This document shows positions 2-64,000 of a DNA stretch of 64,000 bases, one piece after another. This DNA is from an uncultured Candidatus Saccharibacteria bacterium. Its GTDB lineage: Bacteria > Patescibacteriota > Minisyncoccia > UBA6257 > 2-01-FULL-56-20. A model generated the notes under the pieces. That model ran no database searches and was not told where the DNA came from. It saw only the letters and a program-made list of their open reading frames with translations. Location: the NCBI GenBank assembly GCA_965231155.1, contig OZ246418.1:368751-432750 (forward strand), read 5' to 3'. The first letter of the stretch is position 1. Every line of letters begins with the position of its first letter. The translations under genes were made by a program, and so were the position numbers.

Positions 2-1165
2 CTTGATTATGCAGCTTCAACTCCAGTGGCGCCGGAGGTTTTGAAGGCGATGAAACCCTACTGGTCTGAACGATTTGGGAATCCCGGATCGTTACATTCT
101 TTTGGCCAGGAGGCGATGACGGCCGTCGATCAGAGTCGAGAGCAGATTGCCAATCTTATTGGCGCGCAGTTTCGGGAGATTATTTTTACTGGCTCAGCGA
201 CTGAGGCAAATAATCTTGTGCTTCGTGGCACGGTGATGGCTTGGAAAAAGAAAAATCCTCAGCTCACGCCACGGATTATTGTTTCAGCAATTGAACACGA
301 GGCCATTTTGGAGACAGCGCGTGATTTAGAAAAGGAGGGAGTGGAGGTGGTATATCTTCCTGTTGATGCAGAAGGGATGGTGCGAAGAAACGAGCTTATT
401 GCTTCTTTGAACGATCAAACAGTGTTGGTTTCTATTATGTATGGGAATAATGAAGTGGGGACGATTCAGTCGATAGAGGAGATTGTGAAAGTTATTAGTG
501 AGTTTCGTGCGGAGAGAGGATCTTTATATCCATTGTTGCATACTGATGCGGCGCAGGCTTTTCCTTACAGAAGTCTACGAGTGGATGAGCTGGCCGTTGA
601 TTATGCAACTTTTTCTGGTCACAAAATGTATAGTCCAAAGGGAGTGGGGGTGCTGTATGCTCGACAACTTACCGAACATCAACTTCTTTCGCCAGTAATG
701 ACTGGGGGTGGTCAGGAGTTTGGTTTTCGTTCAGGTACCGAGAACGTGCCTCTGATTGTTGGCCTGGCTCGAGGAATGATTCTGGCAGACGAGCACCGAA
801 CGAAAGAAGCGAAGCGCCTTTATGCTTTTAAAGATTTATTTTTTAAGGAATTAAGGAAGGCAGACCGAAAGATTTTACTCAATGGTTCGGCTACAGAAAG
901 AGGCCTGCCACACATTCTCAGCGTTTCTTTTTCTAAAATAGTGGCTTCCGATCTTTTGGTGTACCTGGATCTTCATGGCATAGCAGTTTCTACTGGTTCG
1001 GCTTGTCAGGCGAGATCACCGAAACCTTCCCATGTACTGAAGGCTTTGAGTTTCGAGGCGGGGCGTATTAATAGAAGTGTGCGGTTTGGTTTTGGACGGG
1101 AGACGACGAAAGGGGAGTTGAACGCCACGGTGCGGTTGATAAAAGGAAGGTTGGAGAGAAAATAA
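2..1165 (+). CDS. iscS: Cysteine desulfurase (class V aminotransferase, IscS/NifS family), 5' partial (gene starts upstream of window)
   Basis: Reading frame is open from base 2 (LDYAASTPVAPEV...). PLP-lysine motif SGHKMYSPKGVGVLY. C-terminal active-site region STGSACQA. Stop at 1165. Confidence 0.8.
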   Translation, partial: LDYAASTPVAPEVLKAMKPYWSERFGNPGSLHSFGQEAMTAVDQSREQIANLIGAQFREIIFTGSATEANNLVLRGTVMAWKKKNPQLTPRIIVSAIEHEAILETARDLEKEGVEVVYLPVDAEGMVRRNELIASLNDQTVLVSIMYGNNEVGTIQSIEEIVKVISEFRAERGSLYPLLHTDAAQAFPYRSLRVDELAVDYATFSGHKMYSPKGVGVLYARQLTEHQLLSPVMTGGGQEFGFRSGTENVPLIVGLARGMILADEHRTKEAKRLYAFKDLFFKELRKADRKILLNGSATERGLPHILSVSFSKIVASDLLVYLDLHGIAVSTGSACQARSPKPSHVLKALSFEAGRINRSVRFGFGRETTKGELNATVRLIKGRLERK

Positions 1166-1195
1166 AGAACTTTGTGTGTGCCCCAACGAGAGTTC

Positions 1196-1239
1196 CTGTT
1201 ATTTTTCCATTATGCCTTTTGGATATGGAAAAATAGTAG
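1196..1239 (+). promoter_or_regulatory. Long hairpin (about 15 bp stem) with the 14-nt loop TATGCCTTTTGGAT; the same loop recurs at 5385..5426
   Basis: cctgttatttttccat / atggaaaaatagta pair around the loop TATGCCTTTTGGAT. It is followed by GAGTC and TTGACT. Confidence 0.5.
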
Positions 1240-1251
1240 AAACACGAGTCT

Positions 1252-1280
1252 TTGACTGATTACCAATTTTTGTGTACAAT
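1252..1280 (+). promoter_or_regulatory. Sigma70-like promoter for clpB (TTGACT-N17-TACAAT)
   Basis: TTGACT at 1252-1257, 17-nt spacer, TACAAT at 1275-1280. clpB ATG is at 1304. Confidence 0.5.
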
Positions 1281-1303
1281 AGATTTTAAATCAATAACTT
1301 ATT

Positions 1304-3937
1304 ATGGCTAATTTCAATCGTTTTACTATTAAAGCCCAAGAAGCCCTACAGAACGCCCAGGAGTTGGCTGCGGTGAAGAATCATGGCGAACTGAAGGCTT
1401 TGCATTTACTTTCGGCGCTTATTGCGGATGGCCAGTCCTTGGTCCAGCCGGTCTTGATGCGCTCGGGTGTGAACCTTGATGAGTTGCAACGAGAGATTGA
1501 ACAGGCTTTAGAGCATTTACCGAAGATCGCTGGTGGCACCAGCGTTGGTCAACTCTATCTTTCTCAGGAGTTAATGAAGGTACTTGATCAAGCAGGGAAG
1601 GTGGCGGCCCAACAAAAAGATGAGTTTGTTTCTTGCGAGCATCTTTTACTCGGTGTTTTAGAAGTTACTTCTCAGGCTCAGGCACTTTTGCAACAGTTTG
1701 GCCTGAAACGAGATGCGGCCTTAAGAACACTGGCGCAACTTCGTGGTTCAACGCGCGTGACTGACGAGACGCCGGAATCAAAATTTCAGGTGTTTGATAA
1801 GTACGCAATTAATATGACCGACAAGGCTAAGGAGGGGAAGCTCGATCCGGTGATTGGTCGGGAGGAGGAGTTGCGTCGTCTGATTCAGGTTCTTTCTCGT
1901 CGTACCAAGAATAATCCAGTCTTAATTGGTGAGCCAGGCGTGGGAAAGACTGCCATTGTGGAAGGACTAGCTCAGCGGATTATTTCTGGTGATGTGCCAG
2001 AGTCGTTGAAGGGCAAACAGGTCTTGATGCTCGATCTGGGAGCGCTCATCGCCGGCACGAAGTTTCGTGGTGAGTTTGAGGATCGACTAAAAGCTTTTGT
2101 AAAAGAAGTAAAAAATAGTGCTGGCCAGATTATTTTGTTTATTGATGAGATTCATACCATTGTTGGGGCAGGCGCTGCGGAGGGGGCGGTAGACGCTTCG
2201 AATTTGCTGAAGCCGGCCTTAGCACGTGGTGAACTTCATGCCATTGGCGCCACGACAACTCGTGAGTATCAGCGATATATCGAAAAGGATCCTGCGTTAG
2301 AGCGACGTTTCCAGCCAATTGTGGTCGAGGAACCAAGCATTGAAGACAGTGTGACTATCTTGCGCGGTCTAAAAGAAAAATACGAAATTCATCACGGGAT
2401 TCGTATTAGTGATGAGGCGATTGTGGCCGCAGTAAATCTGTCGGCGCGCTATATTGCCGATCGTTTTTTGCCGGACAAGGCGGTTGATGTGGTTGATGAA
2501 GCAGCAGCAGCTCGTCGATTAGAAAGTGAGAGTTTGCCCAGCGAACTTGATCGTATTCGACGTGAACTTACTCGTCTTGAAGTGGAGCGACAGGCGATCG
2601 CCAAAGAACGCCACAAGGATACGGCTCGGGTGAAGGAGGTAGATAAAAAAATTGAGGAACTTAAAAAAGAAAACGACGAACTGTCTGGTCAGTGGCACGC
2701 TGAGAAGATTAAGTTTGAAACACTCCATAGTCTTCGTCAGAAAGTGGATAATTTAAAGCGAGAGGCCGAGGTGGCTGAGCGAGAGGGAAGTCTGGAACGC
2801 ATGGCTGAGATTATTTATGGCGAACTTCCTCAGTCGCAGAAAGATTTTGAGAGCTATGAGAAGAAACATTTTGGCGGTAAGAAGCAGAAAGGTGGCGATC
2901 AGCAGTTTATAAAGGAAGCGGTAGATAAGGATGATGTGGCCGCGGTGGTTGCTCGTTGGACAGGGATTCCAGTGCAACGCATGTTGGAGACTGAAGGCGA
3001 AAAACTTGTCCGTATCGAGGACGTCCTCCATGAGCGGGTGGTTGGACAGGATGAGGCAATCCAGGCGGTGGCTTCGGCCTTACGTCGCGTACGCGCTGGT
3101 TTGTCAGATGAGAATCGTCCTCTTGGCTCTTTTATGTTCCTTGGGCCAACGGGTGTTGGTAAGACTGAGTTAGCTCGCGCGCTGGCTGAGTTTATGTTCA
3201 ACGACGAGAAGGCAATCGTTCGTATTGATATGTCGGAGTATATGGAGCGATACGCCACGAGTCGTTTGATTGGTTCACCGCCGGGCTATGTTGGCCATGA
3301 GGAAGGTGGACAGCTGACCGAGATTATTCGTCATCGCCCATACAGCCTGATTCTTTTTGATGAAATAGAAAAAGCTCATCCCGAAGTCTTCAATATATTA
3401 CTTCAGGTTTTAGACAACGGCCGGTTGACTGACAGTAAAGGAAAGACGGTGAACTTCAAGAACACGATTATCATTATGACCTCGAACGTGGGAAGTCACT
3501 ACTTGAAGTCGATTGCCGATCTTGGGTTCAAGAGCGACAAGGGCAAGGGAGAGAAGTCGGAGAATAATGACTACCGAAGCAAGGTTTTGGGCGCCCTAAA
3601 GGAGTCGTTCCGACCAGAGTTCCTGAATCGTATTGATGAACTGATTGTGTTTGATCCATTGCGCGAAGCGGCTATGCAGAAAATTGTGGATATTCAGCTA
3701 AAGGCTATCGAAAAGCGTTTGGCCGATCGACGCATTGTGTTACAGATCGATGATAAGGCCAGAGAGTATCTCGCCAAAGAGGGTTTTGATCCTGAGTTTG
3801 GGGCGCGACCGATCAAACGTCTTATTCAGAAAGTTATCTTAGATCATCTCGCAAATCGTATAATTAAAGGTGAGTTAAAAGATGGAGGAAAAATTAAAAT
3901 TAGTTCGCGCGCTAATTCCCTGGTCTTTAGTAGTTAG
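1304..3937 (+). CDS. clpB: ATP-dependent chaperone ClpB (two AAA+ modules with coiled-coil middle domain)
   Basis: 877 aa. Clp_N repeats at the N-terminus. Walker [19 protein letters not shown] and second Walker [16 protein letters not shown]. Long coiled-coil M-domain ([13 protein letters not shown]...). Sensor/arginine-finger regions present. Confidence 0.95.
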
Positions 3938-3950
3938 GGGAGCGGTTTTT

Positions 3951-4589
3951 GGGGTGGCCTGGTTTTTCCTACCATTCCTCTTTTTCGTGGCCGTCGCTAC
4001 TTTCCTTTTCTTACAGCCACCATTTCAGGCCTGGCGTTTTTTCCCGGTTTTTTTTCTGATTATTTTCCTTGCATATATGATCCCCGCCAGTTTCTGGGCG
4101 GGCTTATTACTCTCGATCCTCTTCCTGACTACCCTAGGCATAAAGAATCTCCTGCTTGTTGACCGTGAGCTTTCGGCGGAAGTTTTTTTGTTTATTATTT
4201 CATTTCTTCTGTGGTTCCTTCTTTTTACCACTCAGGCACGGGGAGACTTTGCTTTCTTTCTTCTTGCGCTTAGCGTAATTGGCGCACACCTTCTCCTTCT
4301 CCGATTTCTATTTAAGGTGAGTCAAACAACAGTCCTGGCTACTGGTTTCTCATTTCTGTTGATGCTTTTCGGCCTATTATCTTTGCAGTTGGTATGGGTG
4401 ACCAGCCTCCTGCCTCTTTCCGCCATCTTTGCGGCGTTATTCCTAGGGCTTTTCTCTGGTGTTTTCTGGGAGTTTTTGTTGGTTTACTACCTACATCTTT
4501 GGAATCCTCAGAAAACCAAGATAATTATCTCTGGTATTGTTTTCTTAGTGGGTATCTTTATTTCTCCGGCCCTTTCCTTTTTAATGTAG
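3951..4589 (+). CDS. Polytopic membrane protein, function unknown. Start uncertain: GTG at 3951 just after the clpB stop, versus ATG at 3882 which overlaps clpB by 55 nt.
   Basis: Highly hydrophobic ORF with multiple predicted TM helices. AGGGGAG Shine-Dalgarno-like sequence upstream of GTG 3951. Confidence 0.4.
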   Translation, partial: GVAWFFLPFLFFVAVATFLFLQPPFQAWRFFPVFFLIIFLAYMIPASFWAGLLLSILFLTTLGIKNLLLVDRELSAEVFLFIISFLLWFLLFTTQARGDFAFFLLALSVIGAHLLLLRFLFKVSQTTVLATGFSFLLMLFGLLSLQLVWVTSLLPLSAIFAALFLGLFSGVFWEFLLVYYLHLWNPQKTKIIISGIVFLVGIFISPALSFLM

Positions 4590-4591
4590 TG

Positions 4592-5368
4592 ATGGAAAAG
4601 ATCACCACCCTGGTTTTGCCCATGGCTGGTCGGGGAATGCGCCTGAGGCCACTGACTAATGATCGGCCCAAGGCACTTGTGCCTCTTTTCGGGAAACCGC
4701 TTCTGGAATATTTTCTTGAGGAAGCCGTTCTCTCTGGTATCAAAGATGTGGTGCTCATTATTAGTCCGGAGTATCGAGAGCAACTGAGTGAATATACGAA
4801 AAATGTAGCTGATCGTTTTTCCGGGCTGAACTTCCATATTTATGATCAAGTTGAGCCATGGGGACATGGTCGAGCTGTTCTTGTTGCATACGATTTCTTA
4901 AAGGGGAAGCCTTTTATTATTCGTTTTTCTGACGATGTGATATTTGGAGACGAACCGGCGACGGCTTCGCTTTCCCGTCTTTTCGACGAACACAAACAGC
5001 CACTTATCCTCCTCGAGCCTGTACCTCACGAAAAAGCTTCCTCGTACGGAGTGGTTGGTGTGGTCGAGTCTTTGAACGATGACCTCCATCGCATCTCTCA
5101 TCTTGTCGAAAAACCAAAAGATCCGCCATCAAACCTGACGGTAGTGGGAGGCTATGTTATCACTCCAGACCTCCTTGAGCATCTGAAGCAGGCGGATGTG
5201 ATTGCACCACAGGTTGCTGACGGTCTTCTTATTAATGAAGCGTTTTATCGTGAGCTGGGGAGAGGGGGGAGTATTTTAGGCTGGCAGTTTACTGGTCGTC
5301 GTTTTGACTGTGGGAATCTTGAGGGATTTTACGAAGCCGAAGCGTTTCTGAAAGAAAAGAATTCCTAG
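4592..5368 (+). CDS. Sugar-1-phosphate nucleotidyltransferase (UTP-glucose-1-phosphate uridylyltransferase GalU-like)
   Basis: N-terminal LVLPMAGRGMRLRPLTNDRPKALVPLFGKPLLEY matches the G-x-G-T-R nucleotidyltransferase signature. VEKPK motif present. ATG at 4592 is in frame with ORF 4394, whose upstream part overlaps the preceding membrane gene. Confidence 0.7.
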   Translation: MEKITTLVLPMAGRGMRLRPLTNDRPKALVPLFGKPLLEYFLEEAVLSGIKDVVLIISPEYREQLSEYTKNVADRFSGLNFHIYDQVEPWGHGRAVLVAYDFLKGKPFIIRFSDDVIFGDEPATASLSRLFDEHKQPLILLEPVPHEKASSYGVVGVVESLNDDLHRISHLVEKPKDPPSNLTVVGGYVITPDLLEHLKQADVIAPQVADGLLINEAFYRELGRGGSILGWQFTGRRFDCGNLEGFYEAEAFLKEKNS

Positions 5369-5384
5369 CTGAATACTTTCACTT

Positions 5385-5426
5385 TCTTTAGTTCTCATTA
5401 TGCCTTTTGGATATGAGAACTAAAGA
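5385..5426 (+). promoter_or_regulatory. Second copy of the hairpin with invariant loop TATGCCTTTTGGAT (different 13-14 bp stem)
   Basis: tctttagttctcat / atgagaactaaaga pair around the identical 14-nt loop. Followed by GAGTCCGTTGACA (-35-like TTGACA at 5441-5446; possible -10 TAAACT at 5465-5470). Confidence 0.5.
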
Positions 5427-5551
5427 GAACCCTGAGTCCGTTGACAGGGTTTCTTCAACTCTGTTAAACTGGGCCATCTACTAGATAGTTCGTACTCCCG
5501 CTCGCTACTATCTCCGACTTCTTCTAGGGATCGCTTTAGTTCCTCATTTTT

Positions 5552-6346
5552 ATGAAAGAAGATTTCGACCGCAGTCCATATACCAAGAAAGCTTTTGAAC
5601 TTGCCTATGCCATGTTGCGAATAGGGGAGTCTTTAGAAGCAGGTAGTGTGCGTTCACGACTGGATCTGTTGGCTCATCAGATTCTTGAGGTTTTCACAGA
5701 AAGTCAGTACAAGAAGGCGCCGAATCTTATTGAGGGGGCGGGGTGGTTTGTACGGTTATGGACCGACTCAGAAATTATTCACAGGCATCTCGGCGAGGCC
5801 TTATTGGTGGAACTCTCTAAACTAAAAAACTTGGCTGAGGTGGCAGAGAAAGAGAAGTCTCGAGTTGATGATTTTTATACGCTTACACCACCTTCTTCCG
5901 GCAATTCTGTTTCGTCTCCTGCCGAACAGAAGTCTCAAACTAAAAAAGACCGTCCAGTTGCTAGGATAATTGATCGTACTTTGCCGGATAGATTGCCGAA
6001 TGAGAATAATGCCCATCACTACAACTCCTCCTCGAGGCAGTCGGCTATACTTGCCTTTTTTAAGGGAAGGCCGTCATCCGGCAACATACTGCCCGTTTGC
6101 CGAATGAAAGATATACAGGAAAGTTTTCCGAATGTCAGCGAAAGAACGCTTCGGTATGATTTGCAGAAACTGGTTGAAGAAGGAGCTATTGATCGAGTCG
6201 GGGCTGGACCAATGAGTGCGTATCGCTTGGCGAGAACCGCCTCTCCGGTCGTAACTTTACCTCCAGACAATCGTTATAATAGTCAGCTTCTCCAGAAAGG
6301 GCCCCTTGGAGAGGGGACTGGAAAAGTTCTCGAGAATTCGTTATAG
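5552..6346 (+). CDS. Hypothetical protein with C-terminal DeoR-type winged helix-turn-helix (possible transcription regulator)
   Basis: C-terminal SERTLRYDLQKLVEEGAIDRVGAGPMSAYRL resembles the DeoR-family HTH (vSerTiRrDL..Le..G.l.Rv.GGA). Low-complexity Ser/Asn linker. N-terminal helical region. Confidence 0.55.
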   Translation: MKEDFDRSPYTKKAFELAYAMLRIGESLEAGSVRSRLDLLAHQILEVFTESQYKKAPNLIEGAGWFVRLWTDSEIIHRHLGEALLVELSKLKNLAEVAEKEKSRVDDFYTLTPPSSGNSVSSPAEQKSQTKKDRPVARIIDRTLPDRLPNENNAHHYNSSSRQSAILAFFKGRPSSGNILPVCRMKDIQESFPNVSERTLRYDLQKLVEEGAIDRVGAGPMSAYRLARTASPVVTLPPDNRYNSQLLQKGPLGEGTGKVLENSL

Positions 6347-6449
6347 TGGTTCCCAAGTTGTTCAGTGTGAGGCTGAGCAAAGATCGTGTTCTTAGGGGAT
6401 ATTCTCCTAAGACTCTATAGGCACTTTTGTGCCATCTTTGTTTATAAGC

Positions 6450-6478
6450 CTCGCCTCACAGCGAGTTCTTTTTTTTGT
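6450..6478 (+). terminator. Candidate rho-independent terminator (short stem plus U-tract)
   Basis: cctcgc-ctcaca-gcgag followed by ttcttttttttg. Confidence 0.4.
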
Positions 6479-6654
6479 TATGGCGTTGGCTGTCTCCTTG
6501 GTTCCTTCCCCCTCATCCTCACTGGTGGGCGATGGGTCGAAAACGCGGAGAGTAGTCATTCTGAAATAGTATTTTTCCTCAAAGGTCGAGGATCAATGAA
6601 TAGGAATCTATTCTTTGGTCGATACAACAAACAAATAAGTCAATTAATTAATAA

Positions 6655-9600
6655 ATGAGTAAATCAACAAAGAAAGTTCTTTCCGCAGCGCTTTCCGCGA
6701 CCACCGCTGTGTGGATGTCGGGAGCGATGCTTCTTGTTCCTGTTGCTCATGCTCAGTCAACTGCTGACTTAACTGCTCAGATCTCTGGTCTTTTGGCCAT
6801 GATCCAGCAGCTCCAGGCTCAGTTGAATGCGAAGGGTGGCACAACAATGCCAGCTTCTATTCCTTCCAGCGACCTCACCGTTGGTTCGAAAGGTGCTGAC
6901 GTTTCTGCCCTCCAGCAGATTCTGATCAATGGTGGCTATCTCAAGATTGCCGCTCCGACCGGAACCTTTGGCCCTCTTACAAAGGCGGCCTTAGCAGCAT
7001 GGCAGGCAGCGAATAATGTTTCTCCAGCCGCTGGTTATTATGGTGCGAAGACTCGTGCAGCTTTGGCTGCTTCGATGCCAACGAATCCTACTAACCCAAC
7101 GAATCCTACTAGTCCAACGAATCCAACAGCTCCAGCTTCTGGATTGGTCGTAAGCTTGGCTTCCGACAACCCAACTGCTGGTTCTCTGATTGCAGGTGCT
7201 GGTCGCACCCCAGTTTTGGCGGTCAATTTGACTGCTGGAAACTCGAGTGGCGTAACCGTATCTGAAATCAAGTTCACCAAACAGGGTGTTCTCTCTGACA
7301 CCGCGATCTCTGGAGCGTACCTCGTCGAAAACGGCAAGGTGCTCTCTCAGTACAGCTCGTTGAACCAGGGAGTTATCTCTTTCTCTGGTGTTAACTTGAG
7401 TGTAGCTGCTGGTCAGACTCGCAAGGTCTGGTTGGCAATTGATCCAGCTTCAACTCTCGCAGCCGGTAACACGGTTTCGTTTGCAGTTACTGCTGGTAGC
7501 GTGATGGCAGTTGATGCTGCCAATACGGTTGTTACCCCAGCTGGTAACTTCCCATTGAATGGCAACGTCTTCACCGTAACCACCGTTTCTAGTCCATCGA
7601 TTGCTACCTTCGGCTTGACCGCGGTATCAGTTGGTGCATCAGTCACGGCCGGTGAGATGGCTCGCCCAGTGGCTCAGTACACTTTGGTTCCAGTTAACAG
7701 CCCAGTTATCCTGAAGTCTATCAACTTCCGAGTGACTGGTTCAGCCAACAAGAGTGACATCAGAAATGTCAAACTTATGCTGAACGGTCAGCAGGTTGGT
7801 GATACCTTGCCACAGGTGGCAGCTGATGGAAGTGCCTATTTCAATCTTGAAAATGGTTCAACCTCAGTGAAGATCAACACTGGTTCTTCTAACTTGCAGG
7901 TTCATGCAGACATCATGGGTTCTCCGAGCTTTACCTTTAAGTTCCAGCTCTTGAACGGTTTTGATGTCCTCGCCTTGGACTCGCAGTATGGTGTTCCAGT
8001 GGCCGCTTCTGTAACGACCACCAATGAGACTCAGATCACGATTGCTCAGGGTAAGATCACCTTATCCTTGGCTTCGGATACACCAACTGGTCAGATTGCA
8101 AAGGGTGGTTCGGCCACAAACTTGGCCAAGTTCACCTTGTACGCAGCTGGTGAGCCAATCCGGGTTAAGTTCTTGAGCTTCACGTTGACCTTCACCGGTA
8201 CAACGACGACCTTGTCGTCAATGATTAAGAATATTGCCTTGGTTGACGATGCCGGTGCTCAGGTTGGTTCAACGATTAGCACTCCAACAAGTGGAAACAC
8301 TTGTAGCGTTGGTGGTTCGACCGTAACGGCCGGCTACAATGCTGCAGGAACAATCTACACAGATTGTTTCGGAACTGCTTCTTCGCCAATCAACTACACC
8401 GTGCCAGCAAACACGACTCGGGTACTCACCCTCCGGGGCGACATCCAGTCGGGAGCTGGTTTCACGACGATTTTGGGAGGTTTGTCTAGCCACGCTGGAG
8501 ATTCAAACATCCAGGGTATGACTTCAAGCCAGACCAATTCGACCGCTCAGGTTGCAGGAAGCGCGCTTACTTTGGTAAGCAGCACCTTGACCTCAGCAGC
8601 CAACTCAGCAATCGGTACCCAGACAGTTTCTACCAACCAGGCTAATGTGTTGATCGGTTCCTACTCTTTGAAAGCTTCAACAGCTGAAGGAGTGAACTTG
8701 AACACCATTCAGATCACCACGAGTGCTTCGGGAACCTTGTTCTCGAACCTTCGCTTGATGGTCGGTAATGTCCAGTTTGGTACGACTCAGTCGAGTGTTG
8801 ATGCCAGCACTCCTTACAGTTTCTCTGGCACCTTAAACATTCCTTCTGGTCAGACCAAGATTGTTGATGTGTATGCCAATGCACTTTCTTCGATTGGTAG
8901 CGGTACGACCTATCCAGCCATTACCTCCCTTACCGGATGTACTGGTCAGGGTGCAGTCACCTATACTTCGGTGACTGGTTGTACAGCGACTGGTCAGAGC
9001 GTTCTTGGTGCAAGTGGTGCAACCATCACGGCTACCGTTGATGCTTCCTCGCCTCAGGCACGTCAGATCGTGGCAGGATCAACTCAGGTACCGTTGGCTA
9101 CCTTCCGCTTCAACGAGACTTCTAACGTTGAAAACGTGAAGATCAGCAACTTGGTTGTCTTCCAGCAGGTGTCCGCTACTTCTTCCGTGAAATCGACGTT
9201 TAGCGACCTCGGTATCTACGTCGGAAGTGAGACTTCACCTCGCGGTACTTCCCAGAACGGAACTGCGGCTGCTTCTAGCTCGAACCCTGGTGCTGGTTAC
9301 TACCACCAGTTCTCCTTCGCTGACCCATTGGTTGTTCCTAAGAATGGAGCCCTCTTGGTCACTTTGAAGGGTAATGTTGGTACCTTCAGTAACAGCGGTG
9401 TGACTGACAATGCTACCTTCGTCTTCAAGATCGCCACGTCCACCGATTCGGTGAACGACACGACTGCGGAGACAGTTGATGCACGAGGTCTCACTTCGAG
9501 CATTGCAGCGACAACTACCCTTAACTCGGCAACTGCAAACACAGTTACTGTCTTGAGGAACAAGTTGTCTGTCAGTGCGGCTTCCTTGAATCCTTCGACC

Positions 9601-61124: not shown

Positions 61125-61321
61125 CTCTTCTACGTATGAGGACTCATAGAAACCTGTTGACCTAGAGTGGTTGCGCGAGGCTTTCTAAAGTCTTGGGTGC
61201 CGCTCAGAGAGCGGTTTTTTTGTTCCATGCGAGCTCGTTGAAATTTTAATGATTAAGTAATTAAGTAGGTTCGTCTTCTTGCTCCTCAAGGCAGGAAGCG
61301 AACATAAGTCAGCATTGGGAT

Positions 61322-64000
<2,679 letters not shown>

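Follow-up and report, generated by a model that had tools for sequence, protein, structure and literature searches.

Known hairpin families and the element of this study

Recurring hairpins are known from several families, and in this paper we compare these with a hairpin which occurs twice in a stretch of 64,000 nucleotides (nt) from an uncultured Candidatus Saccharibacteria bacterium (Patescibacteria; contig OZ246418.1, positions 368,751 to 432,750, assembly GCA_965231155.1), called the window in the following. The two copies, c1 and c2, lie ahead of clpB and of a gene for a winged helix-turn-helix (wHTH) protein, respectively, and carry the same 20-nt tip on different stems. Together with copies in other genomes they form a small, low-copy and undescribed family of structured intergenic elements in a narrow set of Patescibacteria.

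REP elements and BIMEs resemble this family in being imperfect palindromes in spacers just past genes, which occur in either orientation, form clusters or inverted pairs, vary among relatives and give hairpins at mRNA 3' ends. However, REPs share their stem within a genome, number tens to hundreds and have a conserved 5' GTAG, whereas in the present family the tip alone is conserved, every stem is unique, a genome holds about one to five copies and no RAYT is seen in the window; neither the many copies nor the shared stem of REPs were found. Integron attC sites are likewise hairpins at gene 3' ends, whose identity lies in their structure and in the extrahelical bases of one strand, and not in the sequence of the stem. 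But in attC sites the stem base is conserved (RYYYAAC/GTTRRRY) and the tip is variable, which is the reverse of what we see here: the stem bases differ between copies, the GTT...AAC of c1 has the opposite arrangement to an attC core site, and neither an integrase nor a cassette array is present.

The hairpins of the SECIS-SelB, IRE-IRP and MS2 operator systems share the design, in which the bulge-and-loop tip is invariant and the lower stem is free to vary, and SelB reads its hairpin with winged-helix domains. These hairpins have, however, a fixed mRNA orientation and short lower stems, whereas stems of 13-24 bp and some antisense copies are found in our family. The subterminal hairpins of IS200/IS605 elements and those of rolling-circle origins are recognised as single-stranded DNA via loop or bulged bases, with pairing outweighing stem sequence, but these hairpins belong to elements that have a HUH enzyme gene of their own and copies that resemble each other; here no such gene was seen and the copies are unlike. 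CIRCE, known from the CIRCE/HrcA system, is also an inverted repeat beside a heat-shock promoter, but conserves its arms (TTAGCACTC) and varies a 9-nt spacer, whereas the present family conserves the centre and varies the arms.

TIGR-Tas arrays of parasitic bacteria combine variable palindromic stems with a loop that holds short conserved motifs (PMC12045711). In TIGR loops two variable spacers of 8-12 nt are flanked by box C/D, and the units are arrayed beside a Nop-domain Tas gene (PMC12045711). The present loop, in contrast, consists of 14 invariant nt and forms no array, and the Pfam scans of the window revealed no Nop-domain protein. Apart from TIGR-Tas, which does not fit, the literature on the core sequence and on repeats and hairpins of the candidate phyla radiation (CPR) yielded nothing relevant. 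Rfam 15 (gathering and E-value scans) did not assign a family either and returned just generic miRNA-hairpin noise with E-values of at least 0.26, far under the gathering scores. In placement and behaviour the hairpins are closest to REP elements and in design to the protein-binding hairpins of the SECIS/IRE kind, but they lack the features by which the compared families are defined.

An invariant tip on unrelated stems

Within the window the 20-mer CATTATGCCTTTTGGATATG has exactly two matches (1208-1227 and 5396-5415), both on the forward strand, and the 14-mer TATGCCTTTTGGAT inside it likewise occurs there twice and on the forward strand. Tolerating up to three mismatches to the tip still gives two matches, with 0.00 expected from shuffled sequences, and a covariance-model search of all 64 kb with the filters off finds c1, c2 and nothing further. 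Hairpin c1 (1192-1243, forward strand; 58.5 bits, E = 2e-14) consists of a 5' arm at 1192-1207, the tip at 1208-1227 and a 3' arm at 1228-1243, its stem including two G.U pairs and one mismatch. Hairpin c2 (5383-5428, forward strand; 63.7 bits, E = 5e-16) has its arms at 5383-5395 and 5416-5428 around the tip at 5396-5415. CAT/ATG pairs extend the arms in both copies, and below the identical tip the arms of c1 and c2 are unrelated sequences. Compared with shuffled controls, RNA folding gives z = -3.6 for c1 and -6.3 for c2, and DNA folding z = -3.2 and -6.5.

The original prediction, made from the letters of the window, had described two different stems closing on an identical 14-nt loop. The identity and the stems stand, but the loop is not open; it folds as an irregular helix, whose centroid structure consists of C-G, A-U and U-A pairs, a bulged U, A-U and U-A pairs, a bulged G and then two C-G pairs that close a UUUU loop, both bulges being on the 5' side. 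The argument that an identical loop on differing stems points to a selected structure gains support from the covariation in an alignment of seven copies from four genomes, and from the bulged tip of diverged copies. In this alignment 92% of the cells are paired and 12 of the 21 pairs have changed on both sides, a level of covariation which none of 500 shuffles reaches and to which no slid register comes near.

Across the copies (loci from other genomes are given here by L numbers, their copies by letters) the stems comprise 13-24 bp, are specific for their site and are often perfect; perfectly paired arms of 17-24 bp are found in three copies (L034a, L030b and L036e). The part of the tip that stays unchanged measures 13-20 bases, and its minimal invariant core is ATGCCTTTTGGAT. 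Variant tips are cTATATGCCTTTTGGATCTAg in L036e, on a perfect stem of 17-18 bp, and TAGGCCTTTTGGCTA in L030c, where the G bulge and the UUUU loop are retained and the A-U/U-A pairs are swapped; the U bulge of L030c is retained by manual reading, but the DNA fold places a two-base internal loop there. L034b has a 7-bp hairpin (GCCTGCC/GGCAGGC) inserted into its UUUU loop, and L034c, L036c and L036d are decayed copies.

Family members in other genomes

An 18-mer scan of 185,579 species genomes (GTDB) gave 24 matches, a single one of which is a real hairpin. This copy, L016, comes from a metagenome-assembled genome (MAG) of the Patescibacteria that has one exact 18-mer in the whole genome, and its stem is a third distinct sequence. 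The remaining 23 matches have no stems and were rejected as chance, as were the matches in viral contigs, which are also stemless, and those of L026, L027, L031 and L032, which lie within coding genes and have no real stem. Three further copies, one at L029 and two at L030, were found by a 20-mer scan of metagenomes, each metagenome having one locus with the exact 20-mer. L029/L034a carries the exact tip on a perfect 17-bp stem, and the two exact copies of L030 have GC-rich stems of 24 and 13 bp and lie on opposite strands about 480 bp apart. The exact 20-mer tip is common to L016, L029/L034a, L030a and L030b; their stems are unrelated.

Additional loci were retrieved via homologues of ClpB and of the wHTH protein encoded at 5552-6346, a sampling that is centred on the wHTH gene and inflates the counts for the spacer ahead of it. 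Exact-tip copies number about one to two per genome and cluster around the block of clpB, membrane-protein, NTP-transferase and wHTH genes. None of the stem arms has a third copy of at least 12 nt in the sequences in hand, beyond isolated, chance-like matches of 12-13 nt in L020, L041, L047 and L051.

Gene context and turnover

In the window c1 begins 26 nt past the stop codon of an aminotransferase class V gene (26-1165) and is followed by clpB (1304-3937), and c2 begins 14 nt past the stop codon of an NTP-transferase gene (4592-5368, with the start as called on L042) and is followed by the wHTH gene (5552-6346); all four genes are on the forward strand. The mechanically found open reading frame (ORF) of the NTP-transferase begins at 4394 and shares about 195 nt with the membrane-protein gene; the start given by the gene callers on L042 corresponds to window position 4592. 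These genes are part of a block (RNaseH_2, Aminotran_5, ClpB, membrane protein, NTP-transferase, wHTH protein and a large PG-binding protein) which is syntenic in all relatives, the named ClpB homologues being labelled Liptonbacteria or Paceibacterota. Because the gene order persists at only about 27-30% wHTH identity (loci L033-L039 and L047-L051), its conservation across Patescibacteria suggests a functional link of the uncharacterised wHTH protein to clpB.

The hairpins are much less stable than the block. Upstream of clpB a hairpin occurs in the window only, and the operon spacer between RNaseH_2 and Aminotran_5 has one, reversed, in L034 only (L034a). The spacer upstream of the wHTH gene holds one copy in the window, three in L030, two to three in L034 and four to five in L036, and the hairpin is not present in L033, L038, L046 (with 86% identical wHTH protein), L047-L049, L050, L051 and L052. 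L030a lies after the NTP-transferase gene in reverse orientation, and the L016 copy sits where tig and a SIMPL-like gene converge, past the canonical terminator that tig itself has. Most copies start 2-26 nt past a stop codon (about 20 nt in L030a, about 14 in L034a and 2 in L016) and most sit ahead of the next transcription unit. Close relatives differ by gain or loss, tandem duplication, inversion and decay of hairpins with the neighbouring promoters unchanged, and even relatives with about 90% identical ClpB differ in hairpin presence at orthologous spacers. The identical tip recurs in L030, where the C-terminus of ClpB is just 73% identical, while nearer relatives are without the hairpin.

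Some further structures were seen in the same spacers. Where L034 has its hairpin a (4291-4390), L036 (4219-4280) has a short plain palindrome, atctatatagat, which is made up of the outer portions of the arms of that hairpin; L036 has either lost the tip by deletion, or the L034 hairpin was inserted into the middle of an older palindrome. In L050 (1975-2135) about 105 nt that include a GC-rich hairpin are bounded by a 19-bp inverted repeat (gtttctattttgaaagaca / tgtctttcaaaatagaaac); the structure occupies the spacer between the NTP-transferase and wHTH genes, the home of the hairpin family in other genomes. The roughly 430 nt between two inverted hairpin copies of L030 (2290-2715) contain a promoter-like TTGACG-N16-TATCAT, a short unit with a canonical terminator and a tRNA-like fold (GCCCGTGGAC ... 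CCGGGTGCAAATCCCGG ... GTCCACGGGC), which is called by neither ARAGORN nor Rfam.

The adjoining promoters

Each hairpin of the window adjoins a forward-strand promoter of which it is not a part, TTGACT-N17-TACAAT of clpB at 1252-1280 beside c1 and TTGACA-N18-TAAACT of the wHTH gene at 5441-5470 beside c2. Both had been called before and are indeed the two best sigma-70-like sites in 1100-6700. GAGTC-N1-2-TTGAC, too, follows both hairpins as noted earlier (1246-1256 and 5434-5445); in the window this pattern has three matches where 0.6 are expected, the third one lying within coding sequence. From these parts the original prediction had assembled a module of hairpin, GAGTC and -35 box that would define a regulon of clpB and the wHTH gene. 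Such a module is largely unsupported in view of promoters that are conserved without the hairpin, of a GAGTC that is not integral and of copies located elsewhere. The clpB promoter is present as TTGAC-N17-TAMAAT in L033, L034, L036, L038 and L052 with a hairpin upstream in none of them, and throughout the clade the wHTH gene keeps an invariant promoter, hairpin or not. GAGTC is missing beside L030b and near c1 resembles native sequence of the clpB promoter region in L033; it is not part of the hairpin element. The distance from hairpin to -35 box also varies (3-12 nt). Because the promoters are conserved with or without it, the hairpin is not a component of them, and because copies come and go between close relatives, it is not a fixed part of adjacent promoters either. 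What had been named beforehand as fatal for the regulon, a dispersed element unrelated to gene starts, is nearly what we find; what still speaks for the idea is that there are few copies, gathered around the clpB-wHTH block and tig.

Other functions of the hairpin sequence itself were considered. A promoter inside the tip (CATAAT, reverse strand) was rejected because the arms vary and there is therefore no conserved -35 box, and a small ORF starting at the ATG of the loop (MPFGY...) was rejected as well, manual translation giving lengths of 7, 9, 14, 15 and 67 amino acids without a Shine-Dalgarno sequence. Pairing of the loop CCUUUUG with an upstream CAAAAGG to form a pseudoknot is possible in L030 only. 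Resemblances to DnaA boxes and to IHF, sigma-54 and dif sites are partial only.

The earlier statement that clpB has neither CIRCE nor CtsR operator is correct: near 1100-1304 CIRCE, HAIR and CtsR are unmatched within 5, 3 and 3 mismatches, respectively. A CIRCE-like repeat before clpB is absent from the window's clade, unlike the distant relatives L048 (about 5510-5540, TTAGCACTC-N9-GTTTGCCAA) and L047 (about 6555-6585, TTAGCAATC-N9-GATTGACAA), in the latter overlapping the -35 box of the clpB promoter.

Two observations on the promoter regions may be added. A motif CGGAG(Y)CTTG / GGAGTC recurs in intergenic spacers of the window, L034, L036, L038 and L042 (L042 about 4370, gcGGAGTCtttg; L036 9640; L034 9745; L038 9945), often at or beside the base of a hairpin; insertions may favour it as a target, or it may be a signal of its own. 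Between the conserved GGGCCATCT that follows the -10 box and the ATG of the wHTH gene there is a leader of about 75 nt in the window (5471-5551) and in L046 (about 215-270); in L034, L036, L038 and L050 the start codon lies about 10 nt past GGGCCATCT, and L030 looks almost leaderless.

A proposed boundary hairpin between transcription units

We tentatively favour, with rather less than even confidence, the interpretation that the hairpin is an evolutionarily unstable structured element at the boundary of transcription units, which is transcribed with the upstream unit and whose tip is a putative protein docking site. The short distance of most copies behind a stop codon implies that their transcription takes place at the end of the upstream unit, and the long stem would then fold into a very stable RNA hairpin. 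By holding up read-through, exonucleases or processing, which it could do in either orientation, this stem would serve to mark the boundary of the unit or to insulate it. The stems of c1 and c2 are AT-rich with a T-rich 5' arm and an A-rich 3' arm, and because a U tract is found on neither strand the hairpins are not canonical intrinsic terminators. Since termination by the hairpin alone is improbable when no U tract is present, we propose that a trans-acting protein which binds hairpins docks at the invariant bulged tip. The hairpin would not be an operator built into the promoters of clpB or the wHTH gene. The structure, conservation, position, promoter independence and instability described above are observed, and the action at the RNA level, the protein binding and the insulation are inferred.

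Several points weigh against this interpretation. Two or three copies are antisense to the gene they follow (L030a and L034a, and L016 relative to the SIMPL-like gene), so that an RNA tip recognised by its sequence would be present there as the complement. The perfect arms of L034a, L030b and L036e look young or homogenised at the DNA level, and not like an old selected RNA, and the decayed copies show that some sites are not under selection. The tip-binding protein is hypothetical. The stems have seven G.U pairs in the sense and three in the antisense reading and five of the six imperfect ones are more stable in sense, but this strand bias is not significant.

The rival explanation which survives best, unlikely as we consider it, is that of a tiny non-autonomous mobile or duplicative DNA hairpin, handled as single-stranded DNA by a tip-reading enzyme, in the manner of the HUH/Y1 transposases with their hairpins, and without any function for the host. 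Adjacency to promoters would then reflect only the free space in a compact genome. The presence or absence at orthologous spacers of close relatives, the occurrence in both orientations, the age spectrum from perfect over mismatched to decayed copies and the identical tip in the more distant L030 would all be expected from such an element. Direct repeats of 5 nt flank c1 (ACGAG, forward strand, left 1186-1190 and right 1244-1248, the right one overlapping the GAGTC mentioned above), L016 (TGAGC) and L036e (CGGAG); strict flanking repeats of at least 5 nt are found in two of nine copies, which is reached in 98 of 5000 shuffles, and L036e is a third only if the terminal pair is counted. A filled and an empty site seem to be represented by CGGAG-hairpin-CGGAG in L036 and the single CGGAG at the same position before TTGACA in L034, but the same flanking repeats could equally have driven the deletion of a hairpin. 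Further, arms and termini are not shared between copies even within one genome, and no transposase is known that tolerates copies without shared arms and termini; since they differ in every copy, the terminal inverted repeats common to the copies of a MITE are missing. The copy number is very low (two in 64 kb, one exact 18-mer in the L016 MAG), and the copies are concentrated in few spacers of one gene block, with no third copy of an arm. Transposase or RAYT genes were not found among the window proteins scanned against Pfam, the window being about 8% of the 808-kb genome. As to an origin by fold-back, the 3' arm of c1 resembles the native L034 spacer at equal distance from the -35 box at about 12 of 16 positions, in AT-rich sequence.

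The wHTH protein as a possible reader of the hairpin

A second alternative, which we regard as quite improbable, takes the hairpin as a structure-specific operator (DNA cruciform or hairpin, or RNA) of the wHTH protein, which would regulate its own gene and proteostasis genes. In the whole group the gene is found linked with clpB; the protein itself carries a four-helix region at its N-terminus and ends in a winged helix. It matches the Pfam profiles HxlR and HTH_DeoR at residues 184-216 under the cut-off, and its homologues carry PF08220. The label DeoR-type, given to it earlier, is justified at the level of the HTH domain, but this domain is C-terminal and below the cut-off, and a DeoRC sensor domain is not matched. 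In the AlphaFold model a winged-helix fold is predicted at residues 159-226 (pLDDT about 90) behind an N-terminal helical bundle; Foldseek relates the protein to DsrD, HxlR/YodB, ArsR/SmtB and the Z-alpha domain (probability about 1.0, E about 0.02), and a wHTH profile finds no relative among the PDB sequences. The protein is a plausible nucleic-acid binder, tied to the hairpin by adjacency alone.

An operator of this protein would fit the fact that most copies lie directly upstream of the -35 box of its gene in four genomes, often several in tandem, although the wHTH-centred sampling biases these counts. The promoter-adjacent copies all have one orientation, and other copies are found beside clpB in the window, upstream of Aminotran_5-clpB in L034 and beside tig in L016. 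The persistent synteny of the clpB-wHTH block, the winged helix itself and the missing CIRCE near the clpB of the window, in contrast to the CIRCE-like repeat at that place in L047 and L048, point in the same direction. However, at least seven relatives, including L046, keep the gene and both promoters without any hairpin, which also speaks against the earlier idea that the protein is the cognate regulator. The spacing to the -35 box is variable. No promoter adjoins the inverted copies L030a and L034a, the copy of L016 is found downstream of tig in a convergent spacer, and decayed copies linger in the wHTH spacer. Moreover, a double-stranded operator needs no complementary arms. To a more elaborate version we would give only a slim chance: the wHTH protein might read the bulged tip when the DNA is extruded as a hairpin or cruciform, or when it is present as RNA, in a way similar to SelB on SECIS, and so control its own gene, clpB and tig. 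This would be a proteostasis circuit specific to the lineage, having replaced HrcA/CIRCE in this Patescibacteria clade, with extrusion or melting of the AT-rich stem as a sensor of temperature or supercoiling.

We give next to no credence to ordinary intrinsic terminators with loops that are alike by chance or by recent local duplication, because c1 and c2, stable as their stems are and just past stop codons as they lie, have no T tract on either strand, are not called by a terminator scan of the region and differ from the genuine terminators of the window with their GC core and T runs, and because a 20-nt identity is expected 0.00 times by chance, the tip recurs on other stems in other genomes and a duplication would have copied the stems too.

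Other features of the window

A noncoding leader of about 180 nt (6478-6655) follows the wHTH gene's terminator (6450-6475) and precedes the gene for a PG_binding_1 protein of 1155 amino acids. It is strongly conserved in L033, L034, L036, L038 and L050 and partly in L051, with the blocks CCCTCATCCTCACTGRTGGGCGATGGGTCGAAAA and CCTCAAAGGTCGAGGA. RNAalifold predicts 36 pairs, 12 of them compensatory, with a weak covariation term, and Rfam has no match; the region is a candidate for a structured leader or a noncoding RNA. At the end of the window (61321-64000) positions 1-2168 of the 23S rRNA model are aligned over 2680 nt, which implies an insertion of about 500 nt. The antisense ORF at 62738-63370 in this region has no Pfam match.

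Significance

Almost no cis-elements or regulators have been characterised in the Patescibacteria, and the hairpins described here have an unusual signature, an invariant bulged tip on unrelated and often perfect stems, present in low copy and turning over rapidly around a deeply conserved clpB-wHTH block. For genome annotation this means that such hairpins should not be taken as operators of the promoter which they adjoin. If the element is selfish, it would obtain a fresh perfect stem wherever it settles, by a mechanism outside the known repeat families. If the tip is a docking site, it would offer a biochemical handle on the control of gene boundaries or on a heat-shock circuit in a group of which most members are uncultured.

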